Below, piece after piece: positions 10,901 through 27,709 of a DNA stretch of 29,696 nt. The notes beneath the pieces are model-generated. The model had not been told where the DNA came from. It worked only from the letters and a program-made list of their open reading frames with translations, and ran no database searches. Each line of letters opens with the position of its first letter. The first letter of the stretch is position 1. The DNA comes from an uncultured Bacteroidales bacterium (lineage in GTDB: Bacteria > Bacteroidota > Bacteroidia > Bacteroidales > UBA10428), in the NCBI GenBank assembly GCA_964518655.1, contig CAZFHF010000001.1:1-29696 (forward strand), given 5' to 3'. The position numbers and the translations under genes were made by a program.

Positions 10901-11016
10901 TCGCAGACGGCACAGCCAAAGAATCTCCGGAAACCTCCCTCCAGGAACCCGGGCAAACCAAACAGGAAGCCAAGCCAAAGGTTCCCAACGGCCGGCAGAT
11001 GACCCTTGAATGGTAA
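7978..11016 (+). CDS. parC: DNA topoisomerase IV subunit A with a long acidic C-terminal tail
   Basis: 1012 aa with DGLKPVQRRIL, HPHGDASI and catalytic AAARYIEARL motifs, a C-terminal pinwheel region, and a ~165-aa E/A/D-rich tail. Confidence 0.93.
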   Translation: MNEENQENINGQLENGDDILELGDSAFESSTASTHVTRLSGMYQEWFLDYASYVILERAVPHLDDGLKPVQRRILHSMKRLDDGRYNKVANIIGHTMQFHPHGDASIGDALVQLGQKELLIDTQGNWGNVLTGDGAAAARYIEARLSKFALDVVFNPKTTAWKNSYDGRNKEPVTLPVKFPLLLAQGVEGIAVGLASKILPHNFNEIIDAAIAHLQDKKFELLPDFPTGGLGDFSKYNDGLRGGVVKVRAKISRLDKKALIITEVPFGRTTSSLIESIVKANERGKIKIKKIDDNTAENVEIMIHLAPGISPDKTIDALYAFTDCEISISPNICVIENDKPRLLGVPEILKLSVQKTVDLLKRELEIRLEELEDAWHMSSLEKIFIENEIYEDIKKCKTEEEILEAIDKGLEPFKKKLLKEVTWDDLVRLSNIPIKRISKYSSMKADEAIKGIEADIEEVKNHLDNIIPYTINYYRQIKKKHGAGRERKTEIRNFDTIIATKVVVANEKLYVNRAEGFLGTSLRKDEYVCDCSDIDDIIVIRRDGKYLISRVTEKSFVGKDIVYVDVFKKNDTRTIYNIVYRDGKSGNVMMKRCAITGLIRDNEYDLTKGREGSRILYLSANPNGEAETVRVHLKPRPRLRNLTPEVDFGKMAIKGRSSVGNILTKYTVQKVVLKEKGVSTLGGRKVWFDEDVNRLNADGRGRFLGEFKGEDKLLVITKSGRFRLSSFDLTNHFEDDLLIIEKYYPDKIFSAVYYDAAHKYYYVKRFVTEPTEKPSSFIGNHPESRLIRITEVEYPRFELKFGGDHSHRNNEIIEVAEFIGIKSYKAKGKRLSKYEVSIVKELEPLIADVKEVAVDEASGEAAAGKTAASTAEADTDAAGEAVDKAVEEAADESADEAQNESVVDKTVSGEKEEEEETDETEEEEAGEEIADQAVGKEAKMEDEEKEEEENILEVEDEDPEETTRKTTGKAAKKFADGTAKESPETSLQEPGQTKQEAKPKVPNGRQMTLEW

Positions 11017-11038
11017 AAAGGGGACAGTCACCTTTTTT
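11015..11038 (+). repeat. Dispersed GGGACAG palindrome, subtype A
   Basis: AAAAAGGGGACAGTCACCTTTTTT overlapping the parC TAA. Confidence 0.85.
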
Positions 11039-11145
11039 AAATAACAAATCTCAAATCACATAATTCAAATAATCTCCAAATACCAAAAAATAAACCTGCC
11101 TTCGCCGATTATCAATGAAGTCGGTAACAGGTGTTTTTACTTCGC

Positions 11146-11153
11146 TATATTTG
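11146..11153 (+). promoter_or_regulatory. Putative -7 promoter box upstream of the 11296 gene
   Basis: TATATTTG; a second candidate, TACTTTTG, lies at 11217-11224. Confidence 0.35.
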
Positions 11154-11295
11154 TTTATAATATTGATTATGAGCAATTAATGCTGGATATTATTTGCTAA
11201 ATACTACAATTTCCATTACTTTTGTATTTGCCAGGTTAAGGAAAGAAACAAGCAAAGAATATACATAATTAATATTGTAATACAGAATATGCATC

Positions 11296-12918
11296 ATGAA
11301 GGTAAAACTTTTCTCATTTCTGGTTATGGCAATTACAATTTCAAATTTACACGGACAATTTCCCTTTGATACTTCATTGGTAGCTTATTGGCCGTTTAAT
11401 GCGAATGCTTTTAATGAAAGCGGGAATGGTTATAATGGTATTGTATATGGTGCTGTTGTAACAAGCGACAGATTTGGTATCCCAAGGAGTGCTTTTGATT
11501 TTGCAGGCGGAGACAGGTTTATTAATTTTGGTAACATACTAAATAATGTTATTGCCGGTTACGGCAAGAAATTTTCAATTTCTGCCTGGATAAAGCCTGA
11601 TACTTCAATGAATAATAACATTATTATAGCGAAATCAGCAGATGACGGTTGTGATGAAGATCACAGGCAATTCAAATTAAGAATATTCCCTCATAACAAG
11701 TTAAGTTTCACTTTTATTTCAAGTCTTACTGAAGCTTATTACAGAAGAGTTATCACATACAATGAAATTGATGATACATCAAAATGGTATCATATTGCAG
11801 TTACTTATGACGGGACTATAAGCACCAATGACGGAATGGACAGGGTTAACCTATATATAAACTCCGATAAACAAGATACGTATCTGGATCCACAGGGCCC
11901 TCTGGGTGATATTCAATTTGGGGAAACACATCTGGGCATTGGCAATTTCCTTACACCTTATGGAAATTCATGCCAGGATACAACATCATTTGAAGGAAAG
12001 ATAGATGATGTGCGAATATATGATTGTGTACTGGATAGCTCAGCAATCAGGCAACTTTACGAAGAACCAAATCCAGCTGTTGATGGATTGACAATCGACA
12101 GTACTTCAAGTTGGATAGGATATGAATGGTATACAGATATAGGTATGTGCAGTGTAGAATTCTACAATAAAATATATTTCAAAGGCGATACTGTAATTAA
12201 TGATACAACATATTACAGAATGTATAAATCAGGGAAGAAAGAGGAATGCTGGCATGGATATGGCTGTGAAGGTTGGGAATTTTTTAAAAATATATATGCA
12301 GGTTCAATATTGGAAATAGAAGAAAAGATCATCGCAGTATTGCCTAATGATTCAGTGAGTTGTATTTTATATGACTTCAGCTATTCTATCAATGACACTA
12401 TCAAATCTGAAATCGGCAAAGGTTTAATAATTCAGGATATTGATACATTGCCTGACGGAAGAAAAAAATTTATAACAGATAATCCTGACTTCCATACAAT
12501 TGAAGGGATTGGAGGAAGTTTGGGCTTATTGATTGATTTTTCAAGCGAGGTTGATTATTGCGGTGGTTTATTTGATGCCAAACTGGGATGTTATTATCAA
12601 AATGATAAGCTAATATTTGTAAATGATATGGATATATGTAATGTTGATCTTCCTCAAATAGTGTTAACCAAAATTGAAGCGCTTAATATAAAAATATATC
12701 CTAATCCTGCAAAAGAAGATATCACAGTTGATCTCGGGCAATTATACAATGAGGTCACACTTACAGTAAAAAATATTCTGGGACAAAACATATCTTCCCT
12801 TTCCTTTGGGCTTACTGACAGGATCAATTATAAACTTAAAGGGCCTAAAGGTTTATACCTGATAGAGATTTACACACGTGAAGGTAAAACAGCAAAATTC
12901 AAAGTAATTAAGGATTAA
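11296..12918 (+). CDS. Secreted LamG-like jellyroll (Laminin_G_3-type) protein with T9SS type A sorting domain
   Basis: Signal peptide; LVAYWPFNANA..ESGNGYNG; FSISAWIKP; WYHIAVTY; FEGKIDDVRIY; a second unknown module; C-terminal IYPNPAKE...GLYLIEI...KVIKD. Confidence 0.85.
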   Translation: MKVKLFSFLVMAITISNLHGQFPFDTSLVAYWPFNANAFNESGNGYNGIVYGAVVTSDRFGIPRSAFDFAGGDRFINFGNILNNVIAGYGKKFSISAWIKPDTSMNNNIIIAKSADDGCDEDHRQFKLRIFPHNKLSFTFISSLTEAYYRRVITYNEIDDTSKWYHIAVTYDGTISTNDGMDRVNLYINSDKQDTYLDPQGPLGDIQFGETHLGIGNFLTPYGNSCQDTTSFEGKIDDVRIYDCVLDSSAIRQLYEEPNPAVDGLTIDSTSSWIGYEWYTDIGMCSVEFYNKIYFKGDTVINDTTYYRMYKSGKKEECWHGYGCEGWEFFKNIYAGSILEIEEKIIAVLPNDSVSCILYDFSYSINDTIKSEIGKGLIIQDIDTLPDGRKKFITDNPDFHTIEGIGGSLGLLIDFSSEVDYCGGLFDAKLGCYYQNDKLIFVNDMDICNVDLPQIVLTKIEALNIKIYPNPAKEDITVDLGQLYNEVTLTVKNILGQNISSLSFGLTDRINYKLKGPKGLYLIEIYTREGKTAKFKVIKD

Positions 12919-12935
12919 AAGTGACAGACACCTTT
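12917..12935 (+). repeat. Dispersed GGGACAG palindrome, subtype A variant
   Basis: AAAAGTGACAGACACCTTT overlapping the TAA of the 11296 gene. Confidence 0.75.
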
Positions 12936-13175
12936 ACAATTTTCTTTTAATAAAATACAAATCTCAAATTTCCAATAGCAAACTCATCCCTTCACGCCTG
13001 AGACTATATATATAACAATTCAACAATATAGTAATTAAGTTTTTACATGGTGAAGCTTGGAATATATATTTATTTTCGTATATTTAATGTAATAAAGTTT
13101 TGTATATTAACAAGTTAAGTTAGCTCACATAAAGGCAGCCAAATTCAAATATTAATTATGTCTAAATAAATAAAA

Positions 13176-14156
13176 ATGAAAACCAGAATCTTTTTGTTAC
13201 CATTAATTTTAGTTGCCCTGCTATGTTCCTGTGAAAGAAATAAAGATAAAAATTCAGGGCCGGTAAAAAATACCCATAGAATAAAACAAGCATTATACGA
13301 TTATAATGAGGAAAATGACTGGAAATCGGTTTTTACCTACGATGGCGAACAGTTGATCATGATAGTGAATTATGAAGATGACGGTGATGGCTGGGCAGAA
13401 TCTGACAAATTAGAAATTACTTATAATGATCCGGATTTTACACTTACATGGTATACTAAAGAATCCGGAAGCTGGGAATTGTATTCCAGGAGTGAATATG
13501 CTGTTGAAAACGGCCTGTTAGCAGAAGAATTTTACTACAGATATGAAGACGGGGAATGGGTTGAGAATTGGAAATGGACATATGAATATTCAGGAACTGA
13601 CATTATTGAATGGATGGGTTATTTTGACAATGACGACGATGGCTCTGTTGAACTGGATAGCAAAGGGGAATATTTATATGAGGAAAACAGACTGGTTGAG
13701 TATAAAGCTTATTATAAGGACGACTCAGATGACTGGGTGCAATATGACAAGGAAACATTCCAGTATTCAGGTTTGATCCTGTCAGGCTGGATCGATTTTG
13801 AACAGGATGAATTTGACGACTGGGTTGAAGAATATAAATGTGAATATTTATATTCCGGTAATCTTATCTCCGAAGCAGTATATTATAATTGGGATTATGA
13901 ATCAGACGACTGGGAGGCCGAACCTTATACCGTGACCTACGGCTATGACGTCAATGGTTACATGATAGAAAGAATGAATGACAGTGAAGACCAGTTCACA
14001 TATGAATATGAGCAAGGCCATGGAAATGCCGCATTCTTCTGGTATTATCCAGAAGAACTGGTTTATGGCGAACCGGCATTAAAAAGTACAGAGGCAAAGA
14101 AAAAATATGTGCCTTATTATGAAAGAATAAGACATACTTCTCATATTTATAACTAA
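13176..14156 (+). CDS. Putative lipoprotein with acidic Trp/Tyr-rich beta-hairpin repeats
   Basis: Lipoprotein signal (…VALLCSC) followed by ~30-aa repeats of the form W...K.E(Y/F).Y.G..L..Y..Y...D. Family not assigned. Confidence 0.75.
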   Translation: MKTRIFLLPLILVALLCSCERNKDKNSGPVKNTHRIKQALYDYNEENDWKSVFTYDGEQLIMIVNYEDDGDGWAESDKLEITYNDPDFTLTWYTKESGSWELYSRSEYAVENGLLAEEFYYRYEDGEWVENWKWTYEYSGTDIIEWMGYFDNDDDGSVELDSKGEYLYEENRLVEYKAYYKDDSDDWVQYDKETFQYSGLILSGWIDFEQDEFDDWVEEYKCEYLYSGNLISEAVYYNWDYESDDWEAEPYTVTYGYDVNGYMIERMNDSEDQFTYEYEQGHGNAAFFWYYPEELVYGEPALKSTEAKKKYVPYYERIRHTSHIYN

Positions 14157-14178
14157 TTATTTACTTAAAAATACAAAG

Positions 14179-14625
14179 ATGAATAATGAACCAGACTTAA
14201 CTAAAAAGAAAAACACAACATCATTGCTGATTGGCGTTGCGCTTCTGATAATAGGATTAATATTGCCTTTTGTTGCAGCCAGTTTATCACCTGGTAGTAT
14301 TTACAGGTCTGCAAACGCATTTTTAATATCCGGACTTGTAAACCTGATAGGTATAATTTCTGTTTTGATCGGTTTCTTGTTATCAATAAAATATTCTATT
14401 CTTCTTGGTTTGAAACCCTTAATAATTGTAATAAATATCATCAGGCTGATATATGGTTTATTCCTGGTTTATTCTTTTATGGGGGCTATTTATATTTACG
14501 GCCAGTCACAATATTATGCCGGATTGATGGTTTTAGTCTCAGTGGTATTTTTAATAATTGCGGTGGTGCTTGTCATAAAAAGTTTCATATTATTTTTTAA
14601 GAAAAATTTAGGGGTCGCATATTAA
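14179..14625 (+). CDS. Hypothetical membrane protein (about 4 TM)
   Basis: 148 aa with four long hydrophobic stretches and an A-rich start context. Confidence 0.7.
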   Translation: MNNEPDLTKKKNTTSLLIGVALLIIGLILPFVAASLSPGSIYRSANAFLISGLVNLIGIISVLIGFLLSIKYSILLGLKPLIIVINIIRLIYGLFLVYSFMGAIYIYGQSQYYAGLMVLVSVVFLIIAVVLVIKSFILFFKKNLGVAY

Positions 14626-14767
14626 AAGTACGGGTGGAAGTATTGGAATAATAAGAATCTTAAAGGACTGGCACCACAAACAGTAAAAAAGGTAAATAAT
14701 ACACTTGTTTTTAAAACTATTATTATTTTTATATTCAATCCCTTAAGTTAAACCTAAAATTCTAATC

Positions 14768-15211
14768 ATGAAAAAAATTAACAGTACTTTAGGTATTATC
14801 TCAGTGATTGTACTTATTGCTGGTGCTTTGATGAAAATATCCCACATTAAATATGCCAGCATTGTTCTCGATCTTGGCGCACTGGGTTTTCTGGCTCAGT
14901 TTATTACCTATTTGATCCTTGGTATCAAACCTTTAACAACTACTCTTGAAAAATCATCAGGGATTGCAGGCGGTATTACTATGTGTATAATAGCAATAGG
15001 TTTCATGTTCAAAACTATGCACTGGCCGGGTGCAAATGTATTTGTTAATGTGTCCCAGTTAGGATTAGTGGTAACCAGTATTCTGCTGATCGCGGATTCT
15101 ATAAAAGAAACAGACAAAGTAAAACAAAGTATCAAGACATTGTTTGCATTCACTCTGATCCTTCTAACAATAATTTTGTTCTTCATGACACAGATGATGT
15201 ATCAGCGCTGA
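14768..15211 (+). CDS. Membrane protein with two GldL N-terminal-like motifs
   Basis: GALMKISHIKYA and GFMFKTMHWPGA match the G..FKI.HWPGA pattern of GldL-like N-termini. There is no GldL cytoplasmic coiled coil. Confidence 0.65.
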   Translation: MKKINSTLGIISVIVLIAGALMKISHIKYASIVLDLGALGFLAQFITYLILGIKPLTTTLEKSSGIAGGITMCIIAIGFMFKTMHWPGANVFVNVSQLGLVVTSILLIADSIKETDKVKQSIKTLFAFTLILLTIILFFMTQMMYQR

Positions 15212-15230
15212 TTCCGGGAAACATAAAATG

Positions 15231-15262
15231 AAACAGCGCCCTAAAGGGGCGCTGTCCCTTTT
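15231..15262. repeat. Inverted doublet of the GGGACAG repeat (subtype B) between convergent genes; possible bidirectional terminator
   Basis: Full minus-strand copy AAAAGGGACAGCGCCCCTTT (15243-15262) directly after the TAG of the 15263 gene, plus a partial plus-strand copy. ACAGCGCCC(15233-41)/GGGCGCTGT(15247-55) form a 9-bp stem. Confidence 0.8.
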
Positions 15263-16267
15263 CTAAGACTCCTCTTTTTTCGCTATTAATTTATTAAGAT
15301 CAGATTGAATGAGTGCTGCTGTCACAGGGAAAAACACTATTGTGAACAACAATATCACCCACTTCCTGTATATCCGGATACCTTTATCCCCGCAATATTC
15401 CTCCATCACATCATAAAAAGTTGTAGTTATGATTGGTAAGGTTACCGTGAATAACAGAGTAATCCAAAATGCGCCCCTTCTTGATAATAATTTCGGTGAC
15501 CGGGTAAAACAGCTAAGGTCGCTATGGATCTTATATATGAAATATAAAGCATATACAGGTATGATATTGAGCAAAAAAGTAATAGCTACGTCCTGTCTGT
15601 ATGCATCATGCTGTATTATTCTTTGTTTGGGCTCTTTATCAAATAATGCATTTTTTATTGGTATCAGAAATATCGTTCCAATAATAAGTTGTGTAACCGG
15701 AACGGTTTTTAATAACATTAAACTTGCATCTGCAAGATGAGAAGACTCAAGGTTTGTTAATAGCCCTGCTGTAACAAAAGAAATTGACGAATGTTGTATT
15801 CTTTCGTAAACCAGAATTATCACGTATAAACCGGCAAAAACACTCATCCCTGCCCTTCCGCCGGCAATGATGGATGGTATAATTAACAGAACCGAACTAA
15901 ATCCAAATCCCCACAAAGCAGCTCCGATATATTGAATCGTATAATCCTTCCCTGTAAAATATAATACCAGGAAACTTCCTATAATCTGAAGTAAAGCCAT
16001 GCCAACCAGGCAAGCTTTAACTTCTCCAAATTTCATTATTATCCAGCCAATAAGAAATCCTGCTAATCCGCTTAAAGTCAGAATCGAAAAAATAACACCT
16101 GTGTGGAATGCACTTATGCCCAGCCTATAAGTAAAGCTGTAATAGGATGAACTAAAAAATGCATATGCTGATATACTAAAGAGGAAGAATATCACCAGGC
16201 CCCAGAATGTATAAGCACTTATCTGGTCCGCCCAGGTCCATGCATGATTCGGATTTTCATTTTTCAT
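15263..16267 (-). CDS. Membrane protein: ~6-TM MFS-like half fused to a DUF4234-like C-terminal domain
   Basis: 334 aa with six N-terminal hydrophobic helices, then ITFLLNIIPVYALYFIYKI...ALIQSDLNKL resembling DUF4234. Family assignments are from pattern recall. Confidence 0.6.
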   Translation of the reverse strand: MKNENPNHAWTWADQISAYTFWGLVIFFLFSISAYAFFSSSYYSFTYRLGISAFHTGVIFSILTLSGLAGFLIGWIIMKFGEVKACLVGMALLQIIGSFLVLYFTGKDYTIQYIGAALWGFGFSSVLLIIPSIIAGGRAGMSVFAGLYVIILVYERIQHSSISFVTAGLLTNLESSHLADASLMLLKTVPVTQLIIGTIFLIPIKNALFDKEPKQRIIQHDAYRQDVAITFLLNIIPVYALYFIYKIHSDLSCFTRSPKLLSRRGAFWITLLFTVTLPIITTTFYDVMEEYCGDKGIRIYRKWVILLFTIVFFPVTAALIQSDLNKLIAKKEES

Positions 16268-16486
16268 AACTTGGTCTCCTGTTTTTAAATTTATTTAATA
16301 AACTGATCATCAACCGGATTGTTTTTTACAGTCCGTCAAATATCAGATTATAAATAAAATGATTAGTATTCAATGAATTAAAGTATTATTAATTGCATAA
16401 ATAACATAAGATGGATATTGAATTATCTTATAATAATAATGCAAATTAATTTAAAAAGTGACATGACACAAATTATTGGGAATTTT

Positions 16487-16508
16487 AAAGAGGGACAGAC
16501 ACCTTATT
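16487..16508 (+). repeat. Dispersed GGGACAG palindrome, subtype A, orphan intergenic copy
   Basis: AAAGAGGGACAGACACCTTATT; a degenerate AAAAAGTGACATGACAC lies at 16453-16469. Confidence 0.65.
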
Positions 16509-16657
16509 GATTAACGATTCTTGATCCAGGATATGTCAACGCCCAAATAAGGTTTCCCTTTTTATTATTCCCCTTTATAAAGCGGGGTTGGAGCATATTT
16601 GGAAATTGAAAATTCAGCAATTCACTCTATGAAATCCGGTAAAGAGTTAATACCCCA

Positions 16658-16694
16658 TGTATTATACAACAGTGTATAATTTGTATTACACAAC
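16658..16694. promoter_or_regulatory. Candidate transcription-factor operator array
   Basis: Perfect inverted repeat ATTATACA-ACAG-TGTATAAT (16661-16680) and direct repeat TGTATTA(T/C)ACAAC at 16658-16670 and 16682-16694. Confidence 0.55.
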
Positions 16695-16776
16695 CGTTTT
16701 AGTATATTTAGTATATTAAAGTTTTGGATATTGGTAAGTTTTAGAACATTAAAAGTTAACATAAACAACAAAGCAA

Positions 16777-17997: not shown

Positions 17998-18927
17998 ATG
18001 ATTAAAATCTTTAAAACTTTTGGCGGGTATGTTGAAGTACCCAAAGTTGAAAAAGGATGCTGGATAAACATCATTCAGCCATCACAGGAAGAACTCCAAA
18101 GAATCATCATTGAATTCAAGTTGCCGGCTGATATTGTCCAGGACATCCTGGATACAGATGAAAGATCCCGTATTGAATATGACGATTTATGGACTTTGAT
18201 AATAGTAAGGATCCCTGTTCTGAACCAGAATAACGGAATACCTTATTATACAGTACCTCTCGGGATATTTATGACGGATAACTTCACGCTTACATTATGC
18301 ATCCAGGAAAATGAAATTTTGCCTCTTCAACAGCCCTCTCTTTTCAGAGAACATTACCATCAGATAACAGATGTATTCAATTTTATTCTCAGGCTTTTCC
18401 TACGTTCCGGAGGAACATACCTTAAATACCTGAAGCAAATAAACCAGCATTCATCCATGATTGAGCAGGACCTGGAGAAATCAATAAAAAACAGGGAGTT
18501 AAACCAGTTGCTGAAAATGGAAAAATGCCTTGTATATTTTATTACTTCGATCAAATCAAACGAGATTGTCCTTGCAAAGCTAAGGAACTCAAAAAAAATT
18601 ACAACCGAAATAAATGAAGACCTGCTTGAAGATGCCATAATAGAAAATAAGCAGGCACTGGAAACAGCACAAATTTATTCCGACATTCAGAGTGGAATGA
18701 TGGATGCTTTTGCCTCTGTGATTTCAAACAATCTTAATGTTGTTATGAAGCAGCTCACATTGATATCAATAATATTAATGATCCCTACTTTGATTGCCAG
18801 TGTTTTTGGAATGAATGTGCCAAATTTTATGGAAAGCTCACTCTGGGCGCTGCCTGCAATAATGGGTTTTTCAATATTCCTGTCCTCTTTGGGTGTCATG
18901 TTATTCAGGAAAAAACAATGGTTTTAA
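17998..18927 (+). CDS. corA: Magnesium transporter, CorA family
   Basis: 309 aa with WINIIQPS, D.DERSRIE, VPLGI, ISNNLNVVMKQLT and the signature GMNV in PTLIASVFGMNVP; two C-terminal TMs. Confidence 0.95.
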   Translation: MIKIFKTFGGYVEVPKVEKGCWINIIQPSQEELQRIIIEFKLPADIVQDILDTDERSRIEYDDLWTLIIVRIPVLNQNNGIPYYTVPLGIFMTDNFTLTLCIQENEILPLQQPSLFREHYHQITDVFNFILRLFLRSGGTYLKYLKQINQHSSMIEQDLEKSIKNRELNQLLKMEKCLVYFITSIKSNEIVLAKLRNSKKITTEINEDLLEDAIIENKQALETAQIYSDIQSGMMDAFASVISNNLNVVMKQLTLISIILMIPTLIASVFGMNVPNFMESSLWALPAIMGFSIFLSSLGVMLFRKKQWF

Positions 18928-19026: not shown

Positions 19027-19455
19027 ATGAAAAAACTAATCCTTGCTATATTGGGACTGGTGTTATCCGGTTGTTTATTTGCACTTGGCTATCTGAAAGA
19101 TATTAATGCAGTGGCAGAACACGCTGACAGTGTCATTAAATATTTCAAGAATCAGGATTTTGACAAAACCTTTGAACTTATGGAAAAGTATTGGCCGCTG
19201 CCAGAATACCAGGTATTCGAATTTAAAATGGAAACAATAGAAGAGTTTGACAATCTTAAGGGAACCTTTGGTAAAATTATCGGGGTTGAACTCCTGGATG
19301 ATGAACAATTCAAGGATTTTCTTATCAAAAAAACATATCTAATAAAATATGAAAACCACCTGATACGGGTATTTCTTATATACTATAAAAACGATGCAGG
19401 CTGGAGGTTCAATCAATTTATGTGGGATATCAATGTTGACGATCTATTCAGTTAA
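19027..19455 (+). CDS. Exported hypothetical protein
   Basis: 142 aa with an N-terminal signal peptide (LSGC could be a lipobox) and a soluble alpha/beta remainder. Confidence 0.7.
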   Translation: MKKLILAILGLVLSGCLFALGYLKDINAVAEHADSVIKYFKNQDFDKTFELMEKYWPLPEYQVFEFKMETIEEFDNLKGTFGKIIGVELLDDEQFKDFLIKKTYLIKYENHLIRVFLIYYKNDAGWRFNQFMWDINVDDLFS

Positions 19456-19475
19456 AAAGGGACAGGCACTTTTTT
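19454..19475 (+). repeat. Dispersed GGGACAG palindrome, subtype A
   Basis: AAAAAGGGACAGGCACTTTTTT overlapping the TAA of the 19027 gene. Confidence 0.85.
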
Positions 19476-19564
19476 GGTTGCTGCCTGCCCCGCTTAGGCG
19501 GGGGTTGCCGGTGCATAGATATTTGATTAACGTTTTGATAATGAGAAATCAACATCTGACAGGA

Positions 19565-20263: not shown

Positions 20264-20641
20264 ATGAAAACTTTAGAAGTAAGAATCATTATCAATGTAA
20301 TACTTGTTCTGGTAACAATTATTTCCGGCATCTGGCTCAGCAGGCTGGGCAGGCCTTTAAACACCCCGTTATTTACAGTGCATAAGATAATAGCACTTCT
20401 CACAATAATCCTTACTGTTATTATAGTATATCAGCTTCAAAAGAACATTGAGTTAAGTAATATTGAATTAACATTAATAATAGTTTCCGCAATATTTTTT
20501 CTCCTCGCATTTGTTTCCGGCGCTTTGCTAAGTTTTGACAAATTTGCTGTTGGAATAATACGAATGATTCATAAAGTAACGCCCTTGCTTCTGGTTATTT
20601 CAACCGGATTAACAGTATACTTACTGGCAAAGGGCAGATGA
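20264..20641 (+). CDS. 4-TM membrane protein with two His-Lys motifs
   Basis: 125 aa; LFTVHKIIAL and RMIHKVTP at the starts of TM2 and TM4. Confidence 0.7.
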   Translation: MKTLEVRIIINVILVLVTIISGIWLSRLGRPLNTPLFTVHKIIALLTIILTVIIVYQLQKNIELSNIELTLIIVSAIFFLLAFVSGALLSFDKFAVGIIRMIHKVTPLLLVISTGLTVYLLAKGR

Positions 20642-20695
20642 AAAGGGGACAGCTAAGGGACAGCGCCCTTTAATAAAAGGGACAGCGCCCTTTAA
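20641..20695 (+). repeat. Tandem stack of three GGGACAG repeats (one truncated, two full subtype B)
   Basis: AAAAGGGGACAGCT followed by an exact 19-bp direct repeat AAGGGACAGCGCCCTTTAA at 20655-20673 and 20677-20695. Confidence 0.9.
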
Positions 20696-20716
20696 GGATA
20701 AAAACAGGATCAAACT

Positions 20717-21373: not shown

Positions 21374-21970
21374 ATGAAAACAAAACTATCTGTGGTCCTT
21401 ATTATCTTCTTCCTTGGACAGCTGTCTGCTTTCCCGCAGGATAAAAAAGAAAGCGAACCTGAACCGTTAAAGCCTGCACTGATAATTATCGACATCCAGA
21501 ATCAACATTTAAACTGGGTTCCTGAAGAGGAAAAAGGCGTCGCCTTATATTTTATCAATGCATACATTTCGCTTTTCAGGAAATACGAACTCCCGGTGAT
21601 ACGTGTTTACCACACTGATCCTGAATCAGGGCCGTCCCCGGACTCCGAAGCCTTTCAGTTCCCTGATATGATAAAGATAACTGAGGATGATCCCATGATA
21701 ATAAAAAATTATCCCAATGCTTTTAAAAAAACTGATCTGGAAAAGATACTGCGTGAGAATAATTGCAATCTTTTAATGCTTTGCGGCCTGAGTGCAACGG
21801 TCTGTGTTATTTCAACATACTTCGGCGCCAAAGACCTTGACTTTAATGCGTTTATGCTGAAGAATGCGATAATGAGCCATGATCCAACATATACCGATAA
21901 CATTGAGGTTATATTTGATGCATTAAGTTATGACGCGGCAAGTGTAATACTTGAGCAGGCAGGGAAATAA
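21374..21970 (+). CDS. Isochorismatase-family cysteine hydrolase with N-terminal signal peptide
   Basis: ALIIIDIQN (Asp), IIKNYPNAF (Lys) and GLSATVCV (Cys) form the triad; hydrophobic signal ending LSA-F. Confidence 0.88.
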   Translation: MKTKLSVVLIIFFLGQLSAFPQDKKESEPEPLKPALIIIDIQNQHLNWVPEEEKGVALYFINAYISLFRKYELPVIRVYHTDPESGPSPDSEAFQFPDMIKITEDDPMIIKNYPNAFKKTDLEKILRENNCNLLMLCGLSATVCVISTYFGAKDLDFNAFMLKNAIMSHDPTYTDNIEVIFDALSYDAASVILEQAGK

Positions 21971-22009
21971 TTTTTTTGCTTATTTTGTGGCGGATATATT
22001 ATTGTTATT

Positions 22010-23152
22010 ATGACCGGTTTCAGGATCAAGTCTGTCTTCATGTGCATTTATATGGGTTTGGCCACATGGAGGGTGTTTTACAATGTTTTTCTTGAGGAGA
22101 ATAACTTCACAGGTGCTGAGATAGGTATAATAAATGCTATATTACAATCAACCATCTTTATTATTGTCCCATTATGGAGCCTTGTTGCTGATAAGAGGGG
22201 TATAAGGCCTACTTTAAGCTGGCTGTGCGTTGCAACTGCCATACTTATGCTTCTCCTTGGGCAAATCAAGGTATTCTGGATACTTTTAATATATATTCCT
22301 CTTTTGAGTATTTTCCATCAACCTCTGGGCCCTCTCAATGATGCTCTTGCCGTGGAATTCTCAAAAACCAGCAGTAAGTACAATTACGGCAAGCTGCGGA
22401 CCTGGGGATCTCTGGGATGGGCAGTAGCTTCTGTTCTAAGCGGATACCTGTTTTTGTATATCCCCGTTGACTATGTGTTCCCGTTAACAGCATTTTTTTT
22501 CATATCCACCATTTTCTTTCTCAGGATCCCTGCCAAAAGGAAAGTGATATATAAACCGGACTTCCAGCCTTTCAATCTGAGGTATCTTTACAGGAACAAA
22601 CAACTGTTTACTTTTATTTGTATACTTTTCCTTTACGGTATTGCCTGTTCGCCGATAAACTCCTTTCTCAACCTGTATTTCACTGAGCTTGGTGCTAACA
22701 ACAAAATCATTGGATATGCATATGCCATACAAGCCTTCATTGAGATACCCTTTTTCATTATAGGTGAAATGTTAATGCGCCGGCTTGGCTCCAGAAGGAT
22801 CATAATAATCTCCCTGGTAGTTATGGTAGTGCGTATGCTGCTTTACGGCCTTGCTCCTTCTGTGTCATTGGGACTGGCACTGGGAGCACTGCAGGGCATT
22901 ACCCTGTCGTTCCTGCTTGTCGGTGCAGTTGATTATATTCACAAGTTGTTGCCGGAGGGAAAGTATGCCATGTGCCAGTCAATAATCTGGGGAGTATACT
23001 TCGGCATCGGCCAGTCTACAGGAAATGTTATTATCGGATTCCTGAAAGATATGTCAGGTATGACAACAGTGATGTGGACCTTTGCAATACTTGTCTTTGT
23101 CACCCTGGCACTGATGGGAGTGCATTTTAAAAGGGGACAGACACAAAGGTGA
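22010..23152 (+). CDS. MFS transporter (MFS_1_like, LacY/HcaT-like group)
   Basis: 380 aa, ~12 TM, with ADKRG and YGKLRTWGSLGW motifs. Confidence 0.88.
   Translation: MTGFRIKSVFMCIYMGLATWRVFYNVFLEENNFTGAEIGIINAILQSTIFIIVPLWSLVADKRGIRPTLSWLCVATAILMLLLGQIKVFWILLIYIPLLSIFHQPLGPLNDALAVEFSKTSSKYNYGKLRTWGSLGWAVASVLSGYLFLYIPVDYVFPLTAFFFISTIFFLRIPAKRKVIYKPDFQPFNLRYLYRNKQLFTFICILFLYGIACSPINSFLNLYFTELGANNKIIGYAYAIQAFIEIPFFIIGEMLMRRLGSRRIIIISLVVMVVRMLLYGLAPSVSLGLALGALQGITLSFLLVGAVDYIHKLLPEGKYAMCQSIIWGVYFGIGQSTGNVIIGFLKDMSGMTTVMWTFAILVFVTLALMGVHFKRGQTQR
23129..23144 (+). repeat. GGGACAG repeat (subtype A) lying inside the last codons of the MFS gene
   Basis: AAAAGGGGACAGACAC encodes KRGQT of the C-terminal FKRGQTQR. 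Confidence 0.6.
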
Positions 23153-23326
23153 TTATTAAACCAGTTATTTTAAATTAGGCAATAGGATAGTTTTACCAAA
23201 CATTCAATATATTGACTTTCGCTGTTATTTATATTATTTTTACATTAAAAGAGTACTTATTAGCAAGTTGAAATAATACCAGTATTATGAATAAGCGGGT
23301 ATCCTGCTTATAACAATCTGAATACA

Positions 23327-25018
23327 ATGAAAAAACTTATCTTATTAATAACAATCGCTGCAATATTAAAGATCAGTCTATTCTCACAATACGACTGGCA
23401 CAAGGCATATGATTGTGATGGCATCTCATATCCCTCATCAACAGCAATATTCAGGGATACAATATTAATTATAGGTATGTTTGTTTATCCAACCCGGGAC
23501 CATTGTACCAGACAGAGAGTAACTGCCTATACTCAATCCGGAAAACGTCTGTGGAGATGTTACGCAGGTGGAAATGCAATATTTACAGATTCTGATTATA
23601 TATATACAGCGGGGTTAGATGATGGGGCATCAGATGTAGGAAATGATGAACTATTAACAATATCCAAGATTGATGAAGCAGGCAATATTGTATTTCATAA
23701 GTATTATGACTTGCCAAATATTTATTGGTATGAATACCACTGGCCCAATAGTATTTCTGTATCACCTGAAACCGGAAAAATCCTTGCAACTATTGAGGAT
23801 AAAGTTTTTATAACTGATTCAACGGGGTCAACACTTGATATTGATTTATTGGGTTCAATACTTGATACTTCTAGTATATATCCACCTCTGGATACTATTA
23901 TAGATTCCAAGCCTTCAACCGATATTTTTTATGCCGGCTTTTGTGATGAAGAATACTATTTAGTAGCATATGATTCAAGTGTTATTATTTATGAATATGA
24001 CGAAAAATTGTTAGAATGGGGATTGTCAGCGGATTTCAGGATTATTCAGGCGGAATTCTTTAATGATAAAGTTTATTTGTTAAGTCAAAATGAAATTTTT
24101 ATACTTAATGATTGGTTAGAATATATAGACACAATAACCTTTAACGACATAACAGAACCGGATGCTTTCAGGATAGATAATAATTCTTTCTGGATCAAAG
24201 GGAAAAACGAACTTAAGGATAAATTAAGGATTCTTAAAATCAATGAATTACATGAAACGGACAGCATTTATGATATTGACACTTCCGCTGTGAGGGATAA
24301 TGTATACTTTGAAATATCAGATAACTGGTTAAGCTTAATTTCAAGTTCAAAATCAAGGCAAACAGCAATAATTTCATATGATATCAATAATATTTATGAT
24401 ATAAAGTTTGATGATGACATATCGATAAAGGATATCCGACTATATAATTTTCATCCCAGTGGAGATTATTTCTATGGTTTTAATGCTGATTTAACTTTTA
24501 AAAATGAGGGGGACGATACAATACGCTCATTTACAGTATATTCTCTTCTTTACGATTTTGGGTGGCATTGTCAGGATTGGGTATTTAATCAAAGATATTC
24601 GGATATAGAAATTCTGCCCCAGGATACCATATTAATTGATGGAATATCCCTGTCAAGAATAATATATGCAAACTCTGATCTTTGTATTGAATGTAAGGCT
24701 CCGAACTCAAAGCTTGAAATAAAAACAGCAGATAATGAGTTATGTGTACCTTACGATCCTGAATCAATTATAGATTATACGGAACACAATTGCTATGAAA
24801 TTTTTCCTGTTCCTGTTTCCGATATTTTAACCTTTAAATTCCCTGATGCTATAAACAAAAAAATTGATATTTTCAATATATCGGGTGAACTTATTCTTAC
24901 AGAAACTTCTGCCGGAAATATTATCAATATTGATCTAAGCCATATTGAGCCTGGAATATATATTATCGGCATTCTCCGGAACAATAAGATTGATTATCAT
25001 AAGCTGGTTAAAAATTGA
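23327..25018 (+). CDS. Secreted protein with T9SS type A sorting domain
   Basis: Signal peptide, beta-rich body, a CARDB/Ig-like segment (TFKNEGDDTI) and C-terminal IFPVPVSD...PGIYII...KLVKN. Visibly AT-rich. Confidence 0.8.
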   Translation: MKKLILLITIAAILKISLFSQYDWHKAYDCDGISYPSSTAIFRDTILIIGMFVYPTRDHCTRQRVTAYTQSGKRLWRCYAGGNAIFTDSDYIYTAGLDDGASDVGNDELLTISKIDEAGNIVFHKYYDLPNIYWYEYHWPNSISVSPETGKILATIEDKVFITDSTGSTLDIDLLGSILDTSSIYPPLDTIIDSKPSTDIFYAGFCDEEYYLVAYDSSVIIYEYDEKLLEWGLSADFRIIQAEFFNDKVYLLSQNEIFILNDWLEYIDTITFNDITEPDAFRIDNNSFWIKGKNELKDKLRILKINELHETDSIYDIDTSAVRDNVYFEISDNWLSLISSSKSRQTAIISYDINNIYDIKFDDDISIKDIRLYNFHPSGDYFYGFNADLTFKNEGDDTIRSFTVYSLLYDFGWHCQDWVFNQRYSDIEILPQDTILIDGISLSRIIYANSDLCIECKAPNSKLEIKTADNELCVPYDPESIIDYTEHNCYEIFPVPVSDILTFKFPDAINKKIDIFNISGELILTETSAGNIINIDLSHIEPGIYIIGILRNNKIDYHKLVKN

Positions 25019-25107
25019 TCTTCTGATTTATAACACAAAATATTTTTATGATAGTATTTAAATTTATATCTTGTTAACCATACAATCCCAATATAATAAA
25101 ACATATC

Positions 25108-27039
25108 ATGAAAAAATCCATACTCTTTTATCTTTTGATGTTTGTTTCTTTTGCTTTTGCAGGAGGACAGGTTTGCGAAAATGATTCCCTTGCCCTGGTG
25201 GCTTTATACGACAGTACAAATGGTGGGGGCTGGACGGATAATACCAACTGGTTACAGCCGGGAAATCCTGTATCCACATGGTACGGCATAACAGTATACA
25301 ACGATAGTGTTACTGTAATAGATCTTCAGGGAAACAATCTTTCAGGTGTTTTACCTCCCCAGATAGGTAACCTGAACAGCCTTACATCTCTCGATTTAAA
25401 TAACAACCAGCTTACAGGCTCCATTCCCAAAGAGATCGGAAATCTAAGCAAGCTTACCACCCTGAGCTTATACAGCAATGAGCTTACTGATTCTATCCCT
25501 TCAGAGATTGGCAGCTTAAGCAGCCTGCTGTATCTGCGTCTGCGAAGCAACGACCTTACCGGTCATATACCTCCTGAGATCGGCAATTTAAGCAATCTGG
25601 TTACATTGCAGTTATACAGCAACGAACTTACAGGTTCGATACCTCCCGAAATCGGCAACCTGAGCAACCTTGAATACCTGCAGCTTAACTATAACCAGCT
25701 CACAGGTGAAATACCCGCAGAGATAGGCAATCTCACTAATTTAAAAATTATATATATGAATAACAACCAGCTCTCGGATTCTATTCCGGTTGAAATCAGC
25801 AGTTTAAAACTTCTTCAGGCACTGGAGATAAACAATAATAAGCTTACCGGCTCCATACCGCCGGAGATAGGCAATATGAGCAGCCTGAAAAACCTGAATC
25901 TGCATCACAACCAGTTCACAGGCTCCATACCGCCGGAAATCGGCAGCCTGGCTGATCTGCAGTACCTGTACCTTGAAAATAACCAGCTCACCGGTTCCAT
26001 ACCTGAGGAAATAGACAGCTTAGACAACCTGATAGTGTTCTGGACTAACAACAACCAACTCTCAGGCGCCATTCCCGCCCAGCTCAACAGCATGCCGGCG
26101 ATGACGAACTTACGTATTCACAATAACTGTTTTACATTTGCTGACCTTGCACCCTTAGCCGGCAACACTTATGCCGCGTTTGACTATGCTCCCCAGTGCC
26201 AGGTGCCAGTCAGCCTCGCAAAGGTCAACAAAAGTACAGGAGATGAACTTCAGCTGAATATTACTGATATTGCAGTCAATGAAGTTAGTGCAGTAAATAA
26301 CGAATACCAGTGGTGGAAGGATGCCGGTGATATAACATCGCCGTCCGCCTCTCCCCTTCTGGTGATAAGCAGTCTTGATGAGCCGGACGCAGGATATTAC
26401 CATTGCCTGATGTCGAATCCGGATTTTCCTTTACTTACCCTGCATACTGACTCAGTTCTGCTGGTGATGAACGGTCCTGTGGATATTATCCTGTCCCCGG
26501 ATGATATTGAGGAGAATGTCCCGCCGGGAACTATTGTAGGTGGACTCACTGCGGATGATTACGACCAGCCCGGAGGACATACATTTGCTTTTGCTGAAGG
26601 CGACGGAAGCAACGATGAAGACAACGACCTGTTCACCATAAGCGGAGCTGACTTAAGTATAAACCATTCGCCTGATTACGAAACAAAACAGCAGTACCAC
26701 ATTTATGTCAGAGCTGAGGATGACGACCTGAAGACCTTCGATAAGGGACTGGTGATCTTCGTGAATGATATCTTTGAAACAGGAATCAAAGAGACAACAG
26801 AGGATACATGGCAGGTATTCCCCAATCCTTCCGATGGAGTGTTTTATATAGCAATAGAAGGTTCACGATACAAAGATGCAATAATAGAAGTAATTAATTC
26901 TTCCGGCGAGGTTGTCAGCAGGGATATTATAAATAACAGGATACAGAAAATAACCCTCAAACATTGTCCTGAAGGTAATTATATAATAAAATTAACAAAC
27001 GGGGAAAATATATACACTAAAAAGGTATTGATACAATAA
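25108..27039 (+). CDS. Leucine-rich repeat protein with Ig-like and cadherin-like domains and T9SS sorting domain
   Basis: N-cap DSLALVALYDSTNG..W, 11 full 24-aa repeats LTGSIPPEIGNLxxL plus a capping repeat, Ig-like YQWWKD...DAGYYHC, cadherin-like I.ENVPPGT.VG.L...D.D...PDYETK, and C-terminal VFPNPSDG...KKVLIQ. Confidence 0.92.
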   Translation: MKKSILFYLLMFVSFAFAGGQVCENDSLALVALYDSTNGGGWTDNTNWLQPGNPVSTWYGITVYNDSVTVIDLQGNNLSGVLPPQIGNLNSLTSLDLNNNQLTGSIPKEIGNLSKLTTLSLYSNELTDSIPSEIGSLSSLLYLRLRSNDLTGHIPPEIGNLSNLVTLQLYSNELTGSIPPEIGNLSNLEYLQLNYNQLTGEIPAEIGNLTNLKIIYMNNNQLSDSIPVEISSLKLLQALEINNNKLTGSIPPEIGNMSSLKNLNLHHNQFTGSIPPEIGSLADLQYLYLENNQLTGSIPEEIDSLDNLIVFWTNNNQLSGAIPAQLNSMPAMTNLRIHNNCFTFADLAPLAGNTYAAFDYAPQCQVPVSLAKVNKSTGDELQLNITDIAVNEVSAVNNEYQWWKDAGDITSPSASPLLVISSLDEPDAGYYHCLMSNPDFPLLTLHTDSVLLVMNGPVDIILSPDDIEENVPPGTIVGGLTADDYDQPGGHTFAFAEGDGSNDEDNDLFTISGADLSINHSPDYETKQQYHIYVRAEDDDLKTFDKGLVIFVNDIFETGIKETTEDTWQVFPNPSDGVFYIAIEGSRYKDAIIEVINSSGEVVSRDIINNRIQKITLKHCPEGNYIIKLTNGENIYTKKVLIQ

Positions 27040-27096
27040 CGAAACACAAATCCAAACCTTATAAGCAATAATAATCGATCATAAAAACCCATAAAA

Positions 27097-27417
27097 ATGA
27101 AATTCAGAATTATTACCCTAAGTTTTATAATTGCACTTGTTTTGTTAGCATTGACAAGCTGTAAAAAGGATGATGACTCTATTTGTATCGCTGTTAGAAA
27201 TGTTTATCCTGACGGCCATGAGGTTAAGTTTACGGCAAAGGTAATTTCCGGCAGCCAGGTAACAACCTATAGTTATTTTGATGGTGACTACAGCCATGAT
27301 AGTGAAGTGCACCACTTCACCTATACAGATATCGTATTTGGCAGTTCAAGCGTTACATCTGTAAATGTGGCCATAGATGACGAAAACTTTTCTTATCCCG
27401 GAGATAAATGCAAATAA
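27097..27417 (+). CDS. Small putative lipoprotein
   Basis: 106 aa with lipobox LTSC followed by KKDDD. Confidence 0.75.
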   Translation: MKFRIITLSFIIALVLLALTSCKKDDDSICIAVRNVYPDGHEVKFTAKVISGSQVTTYSYFDGDYSHDSEVHHFTYTDIVFGSSSVTSVNVAIDDENFSYPGDKCK

Positions 27418-27456
27418 AGCTATTTTAAATACTTATTATTTAACCTGCCTAAATCT

Positions 27457-27657
27457 AATGAAAACGGCTTTACAGCACTTCCTGCAGGCTGGAACTTTAT
27501 GGCTGTCGGGATTGAAGCTAACTTCTGGTCATCTACAATGTCTGATGCAAACAACTCATACCGCCTTGAACTGAGCCATGATATTGCAGGAGTAAATAAG
27601 TACGGAGAAACAGGAAATAAATCGGATGCGATATCAGTAAGGTGCATAAAAGATTAA
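27457..27657 (+). pseudogene. C-terminal fragment of a Fibrobacter succinogenes major domain (FISUMP/Fib_succ_major) gene
   Basis: Manual translation NENGFTALPAG..F..VG..ANFWSST...SYRLEL...K..AISVRCIKD*. There is no start codon or N-terminal part of the domain upstream in frame. Confidence 0.75.
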
Positions 27658-27658
27658 T

Positions 27659-27709
27659 AAAGGGACAGCGCCCTTTGTTGCTTTCCTCTCAGGGCGCTGT
27701 CCCCTTTTT
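27659..27709. repeat. Inverted doublet of the GGGACAG repeat (subtype B)
   Basis: AAAGGGACAGCGCCCTTT (27659-76) and the reverse copy AGGGCGCTGTCCCCTTTTT (27691-27709); GGGACAGCGCCCT/AGGGCGCTGTCCC form a 13-bp stem. Confidence 0.9.

Follow-up and report, generated by a model that had tools for sequence, protein, structure and literature searches.

The intergenic regions of an uncultured Bacteroidales contig of 29,696 bp, which we analysed over its whole length and refer to as the window, contain a short repeat that probably represents a REP-like family carrying the terminal inverted repeat (TIR) sequence of ‘TIRtrons’. These are genes of the TIRYT type (RAYT group 1, or TnpA-Y1 subclass 2.1), which encode RAYT-like Y1 (HUH) transposases acting on single-strand DNA. 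The assignment is based on sequence comparison: the GGGGACAG head of the repeat and about five following bases form the element end in autonomous units of other organisms. We regard the repeat as a new member of a familiar class of selfish repeats and not as a gene-capture system; its one intriguing property is its strict placement and orientation at stop codons.

The TIRYT type is the largest and least understood RAYT group, and we found no biochemical characterization of any TIRYT in the literature examined. Di Nocera et al. (2013, PMC3733652) described TIRYT genes that lie between TIRs with the consensus GGGGWSAS, some of which make up families of repeats found singly, as dimers or clustered. 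TnpA-Y1 subclass 2.1 (Quentin et al., 2018, PMC6006769), which is group 1 of the RAYTs in Bertels et al. (2017), has a signature of NHVH, W[EQ], a YIELNP-like motif and an SS tail in proteins of ~220-240 aa (PMC6006769). Quentin et al. reported no REP-like sequences beside subclass 2.1 genes (PMC6006769). The window appears to show TIRYT-type ends proliferating in an uncultured Bacteroidales lineage.

Occurrence of the repeat in the window

A search with AAAGGGACAGNNNCCTTT, allowing up to two mismatches, found eight matches against 0.08 expected from shuffled sequences, none of which reached eight. We further derived a 24-nt PWM from the window's own copies and applied it across the whole window; because the PWM was built from the same copies, the comparison of AAAGGGACAGNNNCCTTT with shuffles serves as the independent test of enrichment. 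The PWM finds 11 strong copies (17.9-31.4 bits), at 11015, 12915, 15241(-), 16486, 19453, 20640, 20651, 20673, 23128, 27656 and 27686(-), corresponding to a local density of ~11 copies in 18 kb. All 11 are intergenic or lie within the final codons of a gene, and the layout is an A-run, GGGACAG, three nucleotides, CC and a T-run. The listing threshold was set at 8 bits, a level that shuffled sequence also reaches.

An earlier note, made from the letters of the window alone, had reported at least 11 clear copies in two subtypes. The 11 strong copies reproduce this count with coordinates agreeing within 1-5 nt, and the subtypes GACAG-NCA-CC and GACAG-CGC-CC are both real. Its degenerate copies fared unevenly: that at 15231 (+) is the hairpin partner of 15241(-), with 11.8 bits, and that at 18926 is weak, with 10.2 bits, whereas those at 14662 and 16453 score below the 8-bit listing threshold. 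As the note had observed, there is no clear copy ahead of the parC stop, where the PWM gives nothing above 10 bits, and no enzyme is encoded alongside, in that no Y1 transposase was found in the 29.7-kb window, i.e. the whole contig. The copies are arranged as follows.

11015..11038, plus strand: AAAAAGGGGACAGTCACCTTTTTT, starting in or just past the parC stop TAA (11014-11016); 28.2 bits; hairpin of -8.2 kcal/mol
12915..12938, plus strand: TTAAAAGTGACAGACACCTTTACA, at the stop TAA (12916-12918) of a LamG/T9SS-tail gene; 21.1 bits; -1.8 kcal/mol, no better than shuffles
15224..15264, both strands: inverted doublet between convergent genes, with a full copy at 15241-15264 (-) adjoining the TAG stop of the minus-strand gene 15263-16267 and a half-copy partner at 15224-15247 (+); 30.6 and 11.8 bits; 12-bp stem, -22.3 kcal/mol, z = -5.6; listed as a bidirectional terminator-like site
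16486..16509, plus strand: solo copy TAAAGAGGGACAGACACCTTATTG in a divergent intergenic region, away from any stop codon; 27.5 bits
18925..18948, plus strand: weak copy TAAAAAGGCACAGATTGG at the CorA stop, probably decayed; only 10.2 bits, a range that shuffled sequence also reaches
19453..19476, plus strand: TAAAAAGGGACAGGCACTTTTTTG, at the stop TAA (19453-19455) of a 142-aa gene; 27.0 bits
20640..20696, plus strand: direct array of one truncated and two full GGGACAGCGCCC copies after the TGA stop (20639-20641) of a 125-aa, cytochrome-b-like gene; 17.9, 25.5 and 31.3 bits
23128..23151, plus strand: half copy AAAAGGGGACAGACAC without right arm, in the last eight codons of an MFS transporter gene (stop 23150-23152); 21.2 bits
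27656..27709, both strands: REPIN-like inverted doublet of 27656-27679 (+) and 27686-27709 (-), directly 3' of the TAATAA that ends a FISUMP-like gene and followed by TTTTT; 29.2 and 31.4 bits; -28.8 kcal/mol, z = -5.3

The motif therefore occurs in singles, in inverted doublets (15224-15264 and 27656-27709) and in a small direct array (20640-20696). Compared with GGGGWSAS, the head is exactly GGGGACAG in four of the 11 strong copies (11015, 20640, 23128 and 27686-), AGGGACAG in six others (7/8 positions) and AGTGACAG in one (6/8). Neither GTAG nor CGTC is present at the ends of the window copies. A candidate after lysS, CCTGACAGTCAG, was excluded as it falls below the PWM threshold. A search of Rfam returned nothing at gathering thresholds and, at E-values up to 1, only spurious hairpin matches (MIR390, PYLIS_2); exact 18-mer searches of genome and metagenome contig collections gave about as many matches as estimated by chance, with few true family members among them.

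The repeat flanks transposase genes in other organisms

At six unrelated metagenomic loci, all from other organisms (L019, L020, L065, L125, L127 and L128), Y1_Tnp/RAYT-like genes of ~220 aa have the same 12-18 nt as their terminal inverted repeats; both ends were seen at each locus except L065, where only the left end was. Among the cores of the window copies, GACAGCGCCC and GACAGACACC match these TIRs exactly, and three more copies are one or two positions off GACAGACACC. At L019, L020 and L125, the gene is flanked by inverted GGGACAGCGCCC, both ends matching GACAGCGCCC, while L127 has inverted GGGGACAGACACC ends that match GACAGACACC, its TIR being identical to the core of the solo copy at 16486. 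The ends at L128 are GGGGACAGCGACC, with GACAGCGACC at both, and the left one forms a partial-plus-full array like that at 20640..20696. The left end generally lies 54-56 nt ahead of the ATG (121 nt in L125) and abuts a TTGAC(A/G) -35-like box, and the right end lies 0-25 nt past the transposase stop.

The encoded proteins have 219-223 aa at L019, L020, L065 and L125, and those of L019, L020 and L125 are assigned to Pfam Y1_Tnp; E-values for PF01797 are 1e-14 to 1e-15. For L019 and L020, the best NCBIfam match is REP_Tyr_transpos, with 65-71 bits under a cut-off of 80 bits, and the NCBIfam IS200 model reaches only 23-27 bits. The proteins carry NHVH, WQGR, RY[IV]ERNPV and WSS, the signature of subclass 2.1, and in alignment A1 (218-223 aa) N59, H60, H62, W99, Q100, Y119, N123, P124, W138, S139 and S140 are invariant. 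Searching the PDB by sequence with the transposase gave only a marginal match, to the archaeal IS200-type transposase 2ec2 (E = 0.056).

Proteins that are just 54-64% identical have an identical end. Enzymes of organisms annotated as different phyla keep the same 12-18 nt, which makes this stretch a defined target with which to assay binding and cleavage. Each of the more distant paralogues is bounded by inverted ends of its own, the heads being GGGGTCAA, GGGGACAC and GGTGACAG; the GGTGACAG ends come from three distant relatives found in viral contigs with a transposase profile. Two motif scans of viral contigs mostly yielded chance matches in coding regions and a few ordinary terminators, with no transposase nearby.

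Of the two origins that the earlier note had offered for the motif, these results favour the REP/RAYT one and narrow it to the TIRYT type: two of the window's core sequences are TIRs of Y1 HUH genes elsewhere, and the search for a Y1 transposase flanked by the motif, which it had proposed, succeeded at the six loci and gave none in the window. Several observations speak against the TIRtron assignment: the window encodes no Y1 transposase, copy density is patchy, the NCBIfam scores stay below the cut-off, and GGGACAGGCACC serves as a plain terminator stem in some phage contigs. The taxonomic distribution does so too, in that the cognate transposases have mostly Omnitrophota among their named close relatives and no entry labelled Bacteroidota. 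Likewise, all matches of a further transposase search were Omnitrophota, Thermodesulfobacteriota or entries named ‘bacterium’, with no Bacteroidota. In our proposal, the transposase would recognize the GGGGACAG head together with about five further bases, and such an enzyme, from a gene at another place in this genome or one that it once had, may have copied the ends around as non-autonomous elements. The copies gather at the extreme 3' ends of genes with their head toward the stop.

Comparison with known systems

The repeat is closest to the TIRtrons. Its GGGGACAG head fits GGGGWSAS, it occurs as singles, inverted dimers and clusters, and the cognate genes, found in other organisms, show the motifs of subclass 2.1 (NHVH, WQ, YIExNP and SS tail) and are flanked by inverted copies. 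Unlike the published TIRtrons (Stenotrophomonas, Acidobacteria, Rhodopirellula and others), it is found in uncultured Bacteroidales at high local density, and it is known here from the repeats, with the enzyme coming from other organisms.

With the classical REP/REPIN-RAYT systems of Enterobacteria and Pseudomonas, it shares short, extragenic, imperfect palindromes that stand alone, pair up as inverted doublets (REPINs) or cluster; further common features are a Y1 transposase gene in single copy that lies between inverted copies, and the co-variation of repeat and enzyme. It differs from these GTAG-headed systems (groups 2 and 3) in its GGGGACAG head, which is neither GTAG nor CGTC, in its unit, which is shorter (18-24 nt) and has an A/T-rich stem of just 5-9 bp, and in its cognate enzyme, which belongs to another RAYT group and has a C-terminal extension ending in GRPKK. 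Classical REPs number tens to hundreds per genome, whereas the counts given here are local densities. With IS200/IS605 elements and their miniature derivatives, it has the Y1 HUH catalytic domain (PF01797) in common and presumably also single-strand chemistry, short structured ends and insertion in one orientation beside a short target. In contrast to TIRtrons, however, IS200/IS605 elements have two unlike subterminal hairpins at their ends, both on one strand, in place of inverted repeats, and the transposase is multicopy with ~130-150 aa.

Folding and transcription termination

Copies of this kind could also be ordinary intrinsic terminators or 3'-end stabilizing hairpins, whose likeness arose by local duplication or convergence, with no tie to a transposase. 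The two doublets do form strong hairpins with T-runs, the 11015 copy has a 9-bp stem followed by T6, the copies all follow gene ends, and in a few phage contigs GGGACAGGCACC...GGTGCCTGTCCC forms the stem of a terminator. The last observation also means that a word like GGGACAGGCACC, serving there as a plain terminator stem, does not always denote a family member. Yet the strong terminator-like hairpins are confined to the doublets. For single copies, whose stems have 5-9 bp, the folding energies are -1.2 to -8.2 kcal/mol, in several cases no better than those of shuffles, and GACAG stays unpaired in the loop; a stable stem with a U-run, present in both doublets, is marginal at 11015 and absent at 12915, 16486, the 20640 array and 23128. 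Moreover, the conserved bases are those of the loop, direct arrays and a half copy within an ORF make no sense as terminators, and Y1 transposase genes in several phyla are bounded by the identical 12-18 nt in inverted orientation. We therefore regard a purely terminator-based origin as unlikely. Single copies are too weak for a terminator role, while the doublets, with their strong hairpins and the T-run behind them, probably also terminate transcription in both directions. That single copies fold weakly also fits the proposal of the earlier note that the asymmetric core would be recognized by a protein rather than being a terminator loop. In practice, copies can be mis-annotated as terminators, and they alter the ends of ORFs.

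Placement at stop codons

Six gene ends in the window carry a copy, as noted earlier, and each of these copies lies 0-2 nt past the stop with its head toward it: TAA|AAAGGGG at parC, TAA|AAGTGAC at 12918, TAG|AAAAGGG at 15263(-), TAA|AAAGGG at 19455, TGA|AAAGGGG at 20641 and TAATAA|AGGG at 27654. The further claim that copies always read in the sense of the upstream gene holds, albeit with little discriminating power, since nearly all genes here are on the plus strand; the lone minus-strand case is an inverted doublet serving both convergent genes and, alone, does not discriminate. The head points toward the stop at each host gene end inspected in the window and its relatives, although the other loci from the motif scans include a small number of antisense cases. 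We also considered whether a fixed TAA belongs to the element and rejected this, as the left ends of L019, L020, L067 and L003 lack it.

Several related Bacteroidales carry the family: three copies are found at the recJ stop in L078, ~10 in 15 kb in L080 and four in L003, from a MAG whose ParC is ~83% identical to that of the window. No copies were found in L130, L129 and L082; the 16 kb of L130 are another contig of the assembly that yielded L003, so the density is patchy. At parC, L080 has a doublet in the same place, whereas L078 has the same MxLxW* ParC end without a repeat, which indicates that the stop codon is native. This stop was the only site at which filled and empty states were comparable; the sequence downstream is unalignable between relatives. 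L080 also has an array at the same cytochrome-b gene end, in a different, genome-specific subtype (GGGACAGTTCCC), doublets at ~5112-5193 and 10361-10408, and one copy that encodes the final residues GGQTPF* of an ORF.

Such regular placement could reflect a host regulatory signal in the mRNA 3' UTR or the DNA, acting in termination, ribosome release or mRNA decay and kept by selection, with a merely historical relation to transposase ends. The spacing of 0-2 nt from the stop would suit such a signal, as would the head-to-stop orientation at every inspected host gene end, which a symmetric hairpin function does not need. REPs in E. coli that lie within about 15 nt of a stop codon reportedly reduce translation of the upstream gene (Liang, Rudd and Deutscher, 2015), which we also count in its favour. 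However, whole autonomous TIRtrons are placed alike: the upstream host ORF ends 1 nt ahead of the left TIR in L065 and L125 and reads through it in L127. Furthermore, the subtypes turn over at the same sites between relatives, and L078 and L082 lack the motif at the same genes with an unchanged coding end. We give a selected host signal little credence. Since whole TIRtrons elsewhere obey the same placement, the most likely reason for the position at gene ends is that the element family prefers such sites for insertion, rather than later selection.

Head-first solo ends and whole elements right after stops offer a testable clue to target choice. Classical REP termini often abut ORFs or provide their stop codon (PMC3733652), and we found no mention of a stop-codon placement or orientation rule for TIR families in the literature examined. 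Tentatively, one might go further and picture a TIRYT-type family, comprising autonomous TIRtrons and solo ends, that homes just past stop codons, head-first, and whose ends, in this Bacteroidales lineage, proliferated into a standard 3'-end module, reshaping C-termini, providing terminators and giving rise to rearrangements in variable regions. If true, this would be a preference for translated gene ends, so far not described for Y1 transposases.

Gene capture

The other origin offered by the earlier note was an integron-like gene-capture system, in which the motif would be the recombination site of cassettes assembling a run of unrelated, co-oriented genes. The resemblance is that of an oriented, imperfectly palindromic site just 3' of many unrelated co-oriented genes, as in integron attC sites. 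The window and L080 also differ in gene order, with copies located where the blocks meet, and a minus-strand gene of 334 aa has a copy at its stop in both despite its different location; coincidence with breakpoints is uninformative, though, because nearly every intergenic space in the region has a copy. In size, sequence architecture, enzyme class and cassette logic the repeat is unlike attC, and no defining feature of the latter was found. The unit has 18-24 nt as opposed to 57-141 nt, the R''/R' pattern (RYYYAAC...GTTRRRY) matches at 13018, 13120, 23487 and 23620 but never on a copy, and Pfam scans of the window ORFs detected neither an integrase nor a tyrosine recombinase. A Bacteroidetes-type -7-like box lies upstream of several genes that come after a copy; in AT-rich DNA this is weak evidence. 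In addition, the subtype at the same gene ends differs between genomes, one L080 copy forms the C-terminus of an ORF, and copies also follow the core gene recJ. Gene capture thus seems extremely improbable to us.

The three copies after recJ in the relative equally run counter to the idea that the motif marks out an accessory gene array. Within the window, copies are present at 0 of ~5 core gene ends and at ~8/17 gene ends of the variable region, too small a contrast to mean anything. In one relative, copies coincided with an assembly gap.

Distribution of the motif in the window

The repeat consists of an A-run, GGGACAG, three nucleotides, CC and a T-run, and occurs in two subtypes, GACAG-NCA-CC and GACAG-CGC-CC, which share a head formed by the A-run and GGGGACAG. 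Spanning a whole contig of 29,696 bp, the window derives from an uncultured Bacteroidales-like bacterium: its named ParC relatives belong to Bacteroidales, several of its proteins carry T9SS sorting tails and one has a GldL-like N-terminus. After a conserved gene block come about 17 genes, mostly co-oriented and of lower G+C (0.32-0.36 vs 0.40-0.47).

Motif copies and conserved block in the window
up to 11016: conserved block recJ(partial)-lipB-lipA / lysS-DoxX-parE-parC
11015, 12915, 16486, 19453: single copies
15224-15264: inverted doublet
20640-20696: direct array
23128: half copy within the end of an MFS gene
27656-27709: inverted doublet

The recurrence at gene ends proposed in an earlier note is real: AAAGGGACAGNNNCCTTT, with at most two mismatches, has 8 matches in the window against 0.08 expected, and a 24-nt position weight matrix (PWM) finds 11 strong copies, scoring 17.9-31.4 bits, each of which is intergenic or lies within the last codons of an ORF. 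Because the PWM was derived from these same copies, the mismatch search constitutes the independent test. As the note had also stated, copies start 0-2 nt after the stop at six gene ends, and the PWM scan of the window detects none ahead of the parC stop. Two of its four degenerate copies, at 14662 and 16453, do not rise above background.

Several copies are followed by an A-rich stretch with a CAAAT period (e.g. AACAAATCTCAAATCACA...CAAAT...), here and on contigs from relatives (L003, L078, L080).

A-rich stretches with CAAAT period
window 11040-11095 and 12950-12990
L003 640-740
L080 6893-6940
L078 ~1560-1700, minus strand, running into an assembly gap (N run)

As window 11020-11072 and L080 6880-6932 match at 81% over 53 nt, the repeated unit may reach past the 24-nt core.

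In the lipoprotein-like gene with a Fib_succ_major (FISUMP) end (27097-27654), an in-frame TAA at 27415-27417 could mean that the gene is a pseudogene or comprises two separate ORFs, or could stem from a sequencing error; the FISUMP Pfam match lies only in the downstream 78 aa (23.7 bits, under the 33.9-bit cut-off).

The motif forms the ends of transposase units in other organisms

An exact scan for the 18-mer AAAGGGACAGCGCCCTTT in public genomes and metagenomes yielded 23 and 52 matches, about the chance estimate; several of these clearly represent the same element (L019, L020, L065). In L019, from a Planctomycetia MAG, and L020, from a delta-proteobacterial MAG, a 220-223-aa ORF starting with MPR(K/Q)xRI lies between inverted motif copies; in L065 this ORF comes after a copy of the motif. 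Pfam assigns the ORFs of L019 and L020 to Y1_Tnp (E = 4e-14 and 2e-15), and their best NCBIfam model is the REP-associated tyrosine transposase, with 65-71 bits at a cut-off of 80 bits. Contigs of other homologues provided three further units (L125, L127, L128).

Terminal inverted repeats (TIRs) and regions holding the left end with its TTGAC(A/G) box
L019: left end and box, 3827-3870
L020: left end and box, 925-965
L065: left end and box, 2290-2330
L125: TIR AAAGGGGACAGCGCCCTTTTT; left end and box, 2853-2885
L127: TIR AAAAAGGGGACAGACACCTTTTT, including the core of window 16486 and 23128 and of L078 and L080; left end and box, 9941-9975
L128: TIR AAAAGGGGACAGCGACCTTTTT, the form taken by the third L078 copy; left end and box, 6843-6880
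L067: solo end and box, 8463-8495

GACAGCGCCC and GACAGACACC are thus identical to the ends of autonomous elements in other organisms; the window copies at 11015, 12915 and 19453 match GACAGACACC with one or two mismatches. Partial tandem copies precede the L128 TIR, similar to the window array at 20640. The layout of the units is constant: the left end lies 54-56 nt upstream of the ATG (121 in L125) and adjoins a -35-like TTGAC(A/G) box, while the right end follows 0-25 nt after the transposase stop, with the codons for a conserved C-terminal GRPKK just upstream of, or reaching into, its A-run. Enzymes that share one and the same CGC-type end show no more than 54-64% identity to each other; the end is thus more conserved than the protein, as would be expected for a recognition sequence. 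In more distant paralogues the inverted ends are distinct but have related heads: GGGGTCAA and GGGGACAC for L076, and GGTGACAG for L122-L124.

Such units are known as TIRtrons: Di Nocera et al. (2013; PMC3733652) described RAYT-like genes flanked by TIRs instead of classical REPs, named them TIRYTs, noted a common GGGGWSAS motif, and reported repeat families made up of certain TIRs, arranged singly, as dimers or in clusters. Quentin et al. (2018; PMC6006769) placed TIRYTs in subclass 2.1 (Bertels group 1; signature NHVH, W[EQ], YIELNP, SS tail, ~238 aa), beside whose genes they found no REP-like sequence. In the literature searched, only these two studies mention TIRYTs. The enzymes described here exhibit NHVH, WQGR, RY[IV]ERNPV and WSS, and the window head GGGGACAG fits GGGGWSAS. 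The REP/RAYT-type element suggested earlier is supported and can be sharpened to a TIRYT-type terminal-repeat family, a kind already known but little studied, whose motif forms the inverted ends of Y1 genes elsewhere. The window contains no transposase, and those close relatives of the cognate enzymes that carry an organism name come from Omnitrophota and others, none from Bacteroidota; mobilisation in this lineage, the genome-wide copy number and any regulatory effect are therefore inferences.

The TTGAC(A/G) box follows the left end within 3-6 nt in every TIRtron, and is also found at a solo end devoid of a transposase gene (L067); an outward-facing promoter could thus be present on solo left ends.

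Dense GGGGACAGCGCCC clusters occur on high-G+C (0.57-0.60) metagenomic contigs, with no nearby transposase in the examined stretches.

Dense GGGGACAGCGCCC clusters
L030 820-970
L071 740-840
L047 1650-1730
L060 2270-2370

In L030 and L071, GGGGACAGCGCCC is interspersed with GGGGACAGACACC; both subtypes thus recur from the window, whose G+C is 35-40%.

Comparison with relatives

Syntenic contigs were reached via ParC homologues. In L078, whose ParC is 88% identical over 850 aligned residues, no copy follows parC, yet the stop has the same position (...KW* vs ...EW* in the window); the window copy was therefore inserted directly after a native stop. Three copies in tandem also sit at the L078 stop of recJ, a core gene; the family is therefore not limited to accessory genes. 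In L080 (80% identical) the parC stop bears an inverted doublet, and of its roughly ten copies in total most belong to a subtype specific to that genome, GGGACAGTTCCC. Behind the cytochrome-b-like gene, the array occupies the same gene end in L080 and the window, but with another subtype in L080, and one L080 copy encodes the final residues GGQTPF* of a homolog of the window's 326-aa gene. L082, L129 and L130 have no copies; as L003, from the same assembly as L130, has four in 8 kb, density is patchy.

Past parC, the window and L080 diverge in gene order, and blocks of nucleotide homology end at or near copies. An integron-like gene-capture site, the other possibility raised in the note, might be read into this, but almost all intergenic spaces there contain a copy, so these block ends are no evidence for cassette exchange. 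Matches to the attC-like R''/R' pattern are few in this region and never coincide with copies, Pfam scans of the window reveal no integrase, and a Bacteroidetes -7-like box (TAnnTTTG/A) precedes several genes that follow copies, which is weak evidence in AT-rich DNA. Gene capture is not supported.

A third, weaker variant, GGACTGGCAYC, lies beside a GldL_N-like gene, upstream of it in the window (14662-14680) and at its stop in L080 (5725-5748). Separately, an acidic, E/A/D/K-rich low-complexity extension of about 130-150 aa (window 10530-11000, residues ~850-1005) precedes the conserved C-terminal MTLEW of ParC in the window (1012 aa) and L080 (991 aa), and is missing from relatives of 881-882 aa.

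Folding of the copies

As RNA, single copies reach just -1.2 to -8.2 kcal/mol, several no better than shuffles; GACAG remains unpaired in the loop, and most lack a U-run. Pairing therefore does not explain the conservation of the motif, and most single copies are probably not simple terminators. The doublets, which have T-runs behind them, fold to -22.3 and -28.8 kcal/mol (z ~ -5.5). An Rfam search returned nothing relevant. Just after the 19453 copy, window 19476-19505 contains an incomplete match in inverted orientation, TGCCTGCCCC, as well as a distinct, perfect hairpin, CCCCGC-TTAG-GCGGGG. This hairpin probably serves as the actual terminator of the gene ending at that copy.

Head-first placement at stop codons

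The most interesting property of the family is its head-first placement at stop codons. In E. coli, Liang, Rudd and Deutscher (2015) reportedly found that a REP no more than about 15 nt from a stop reduces how strongly the gene upstream is translated. Wherever a host gene ends in a copy (window, L078, L080, L003), the head points toward the stop; a few antisense cases exist among the other motif-scan loci. In whole TIRtrons, the upstream host ORF ends 1 nt before the left TIR (L065, L125), runs through it (L127), or ends 41-46 nt before it (L019, L128), and in L125 a convergent downstream gene faces the right TIR likewise. Since autonomous units and solo ends follow one rule, a preference for inserting at the 3' ends of genes, from which replication-strand effects were not separable, would account for the placement better than selection for an RNA function. 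Di Nocera et al. [quoted passage not shown]
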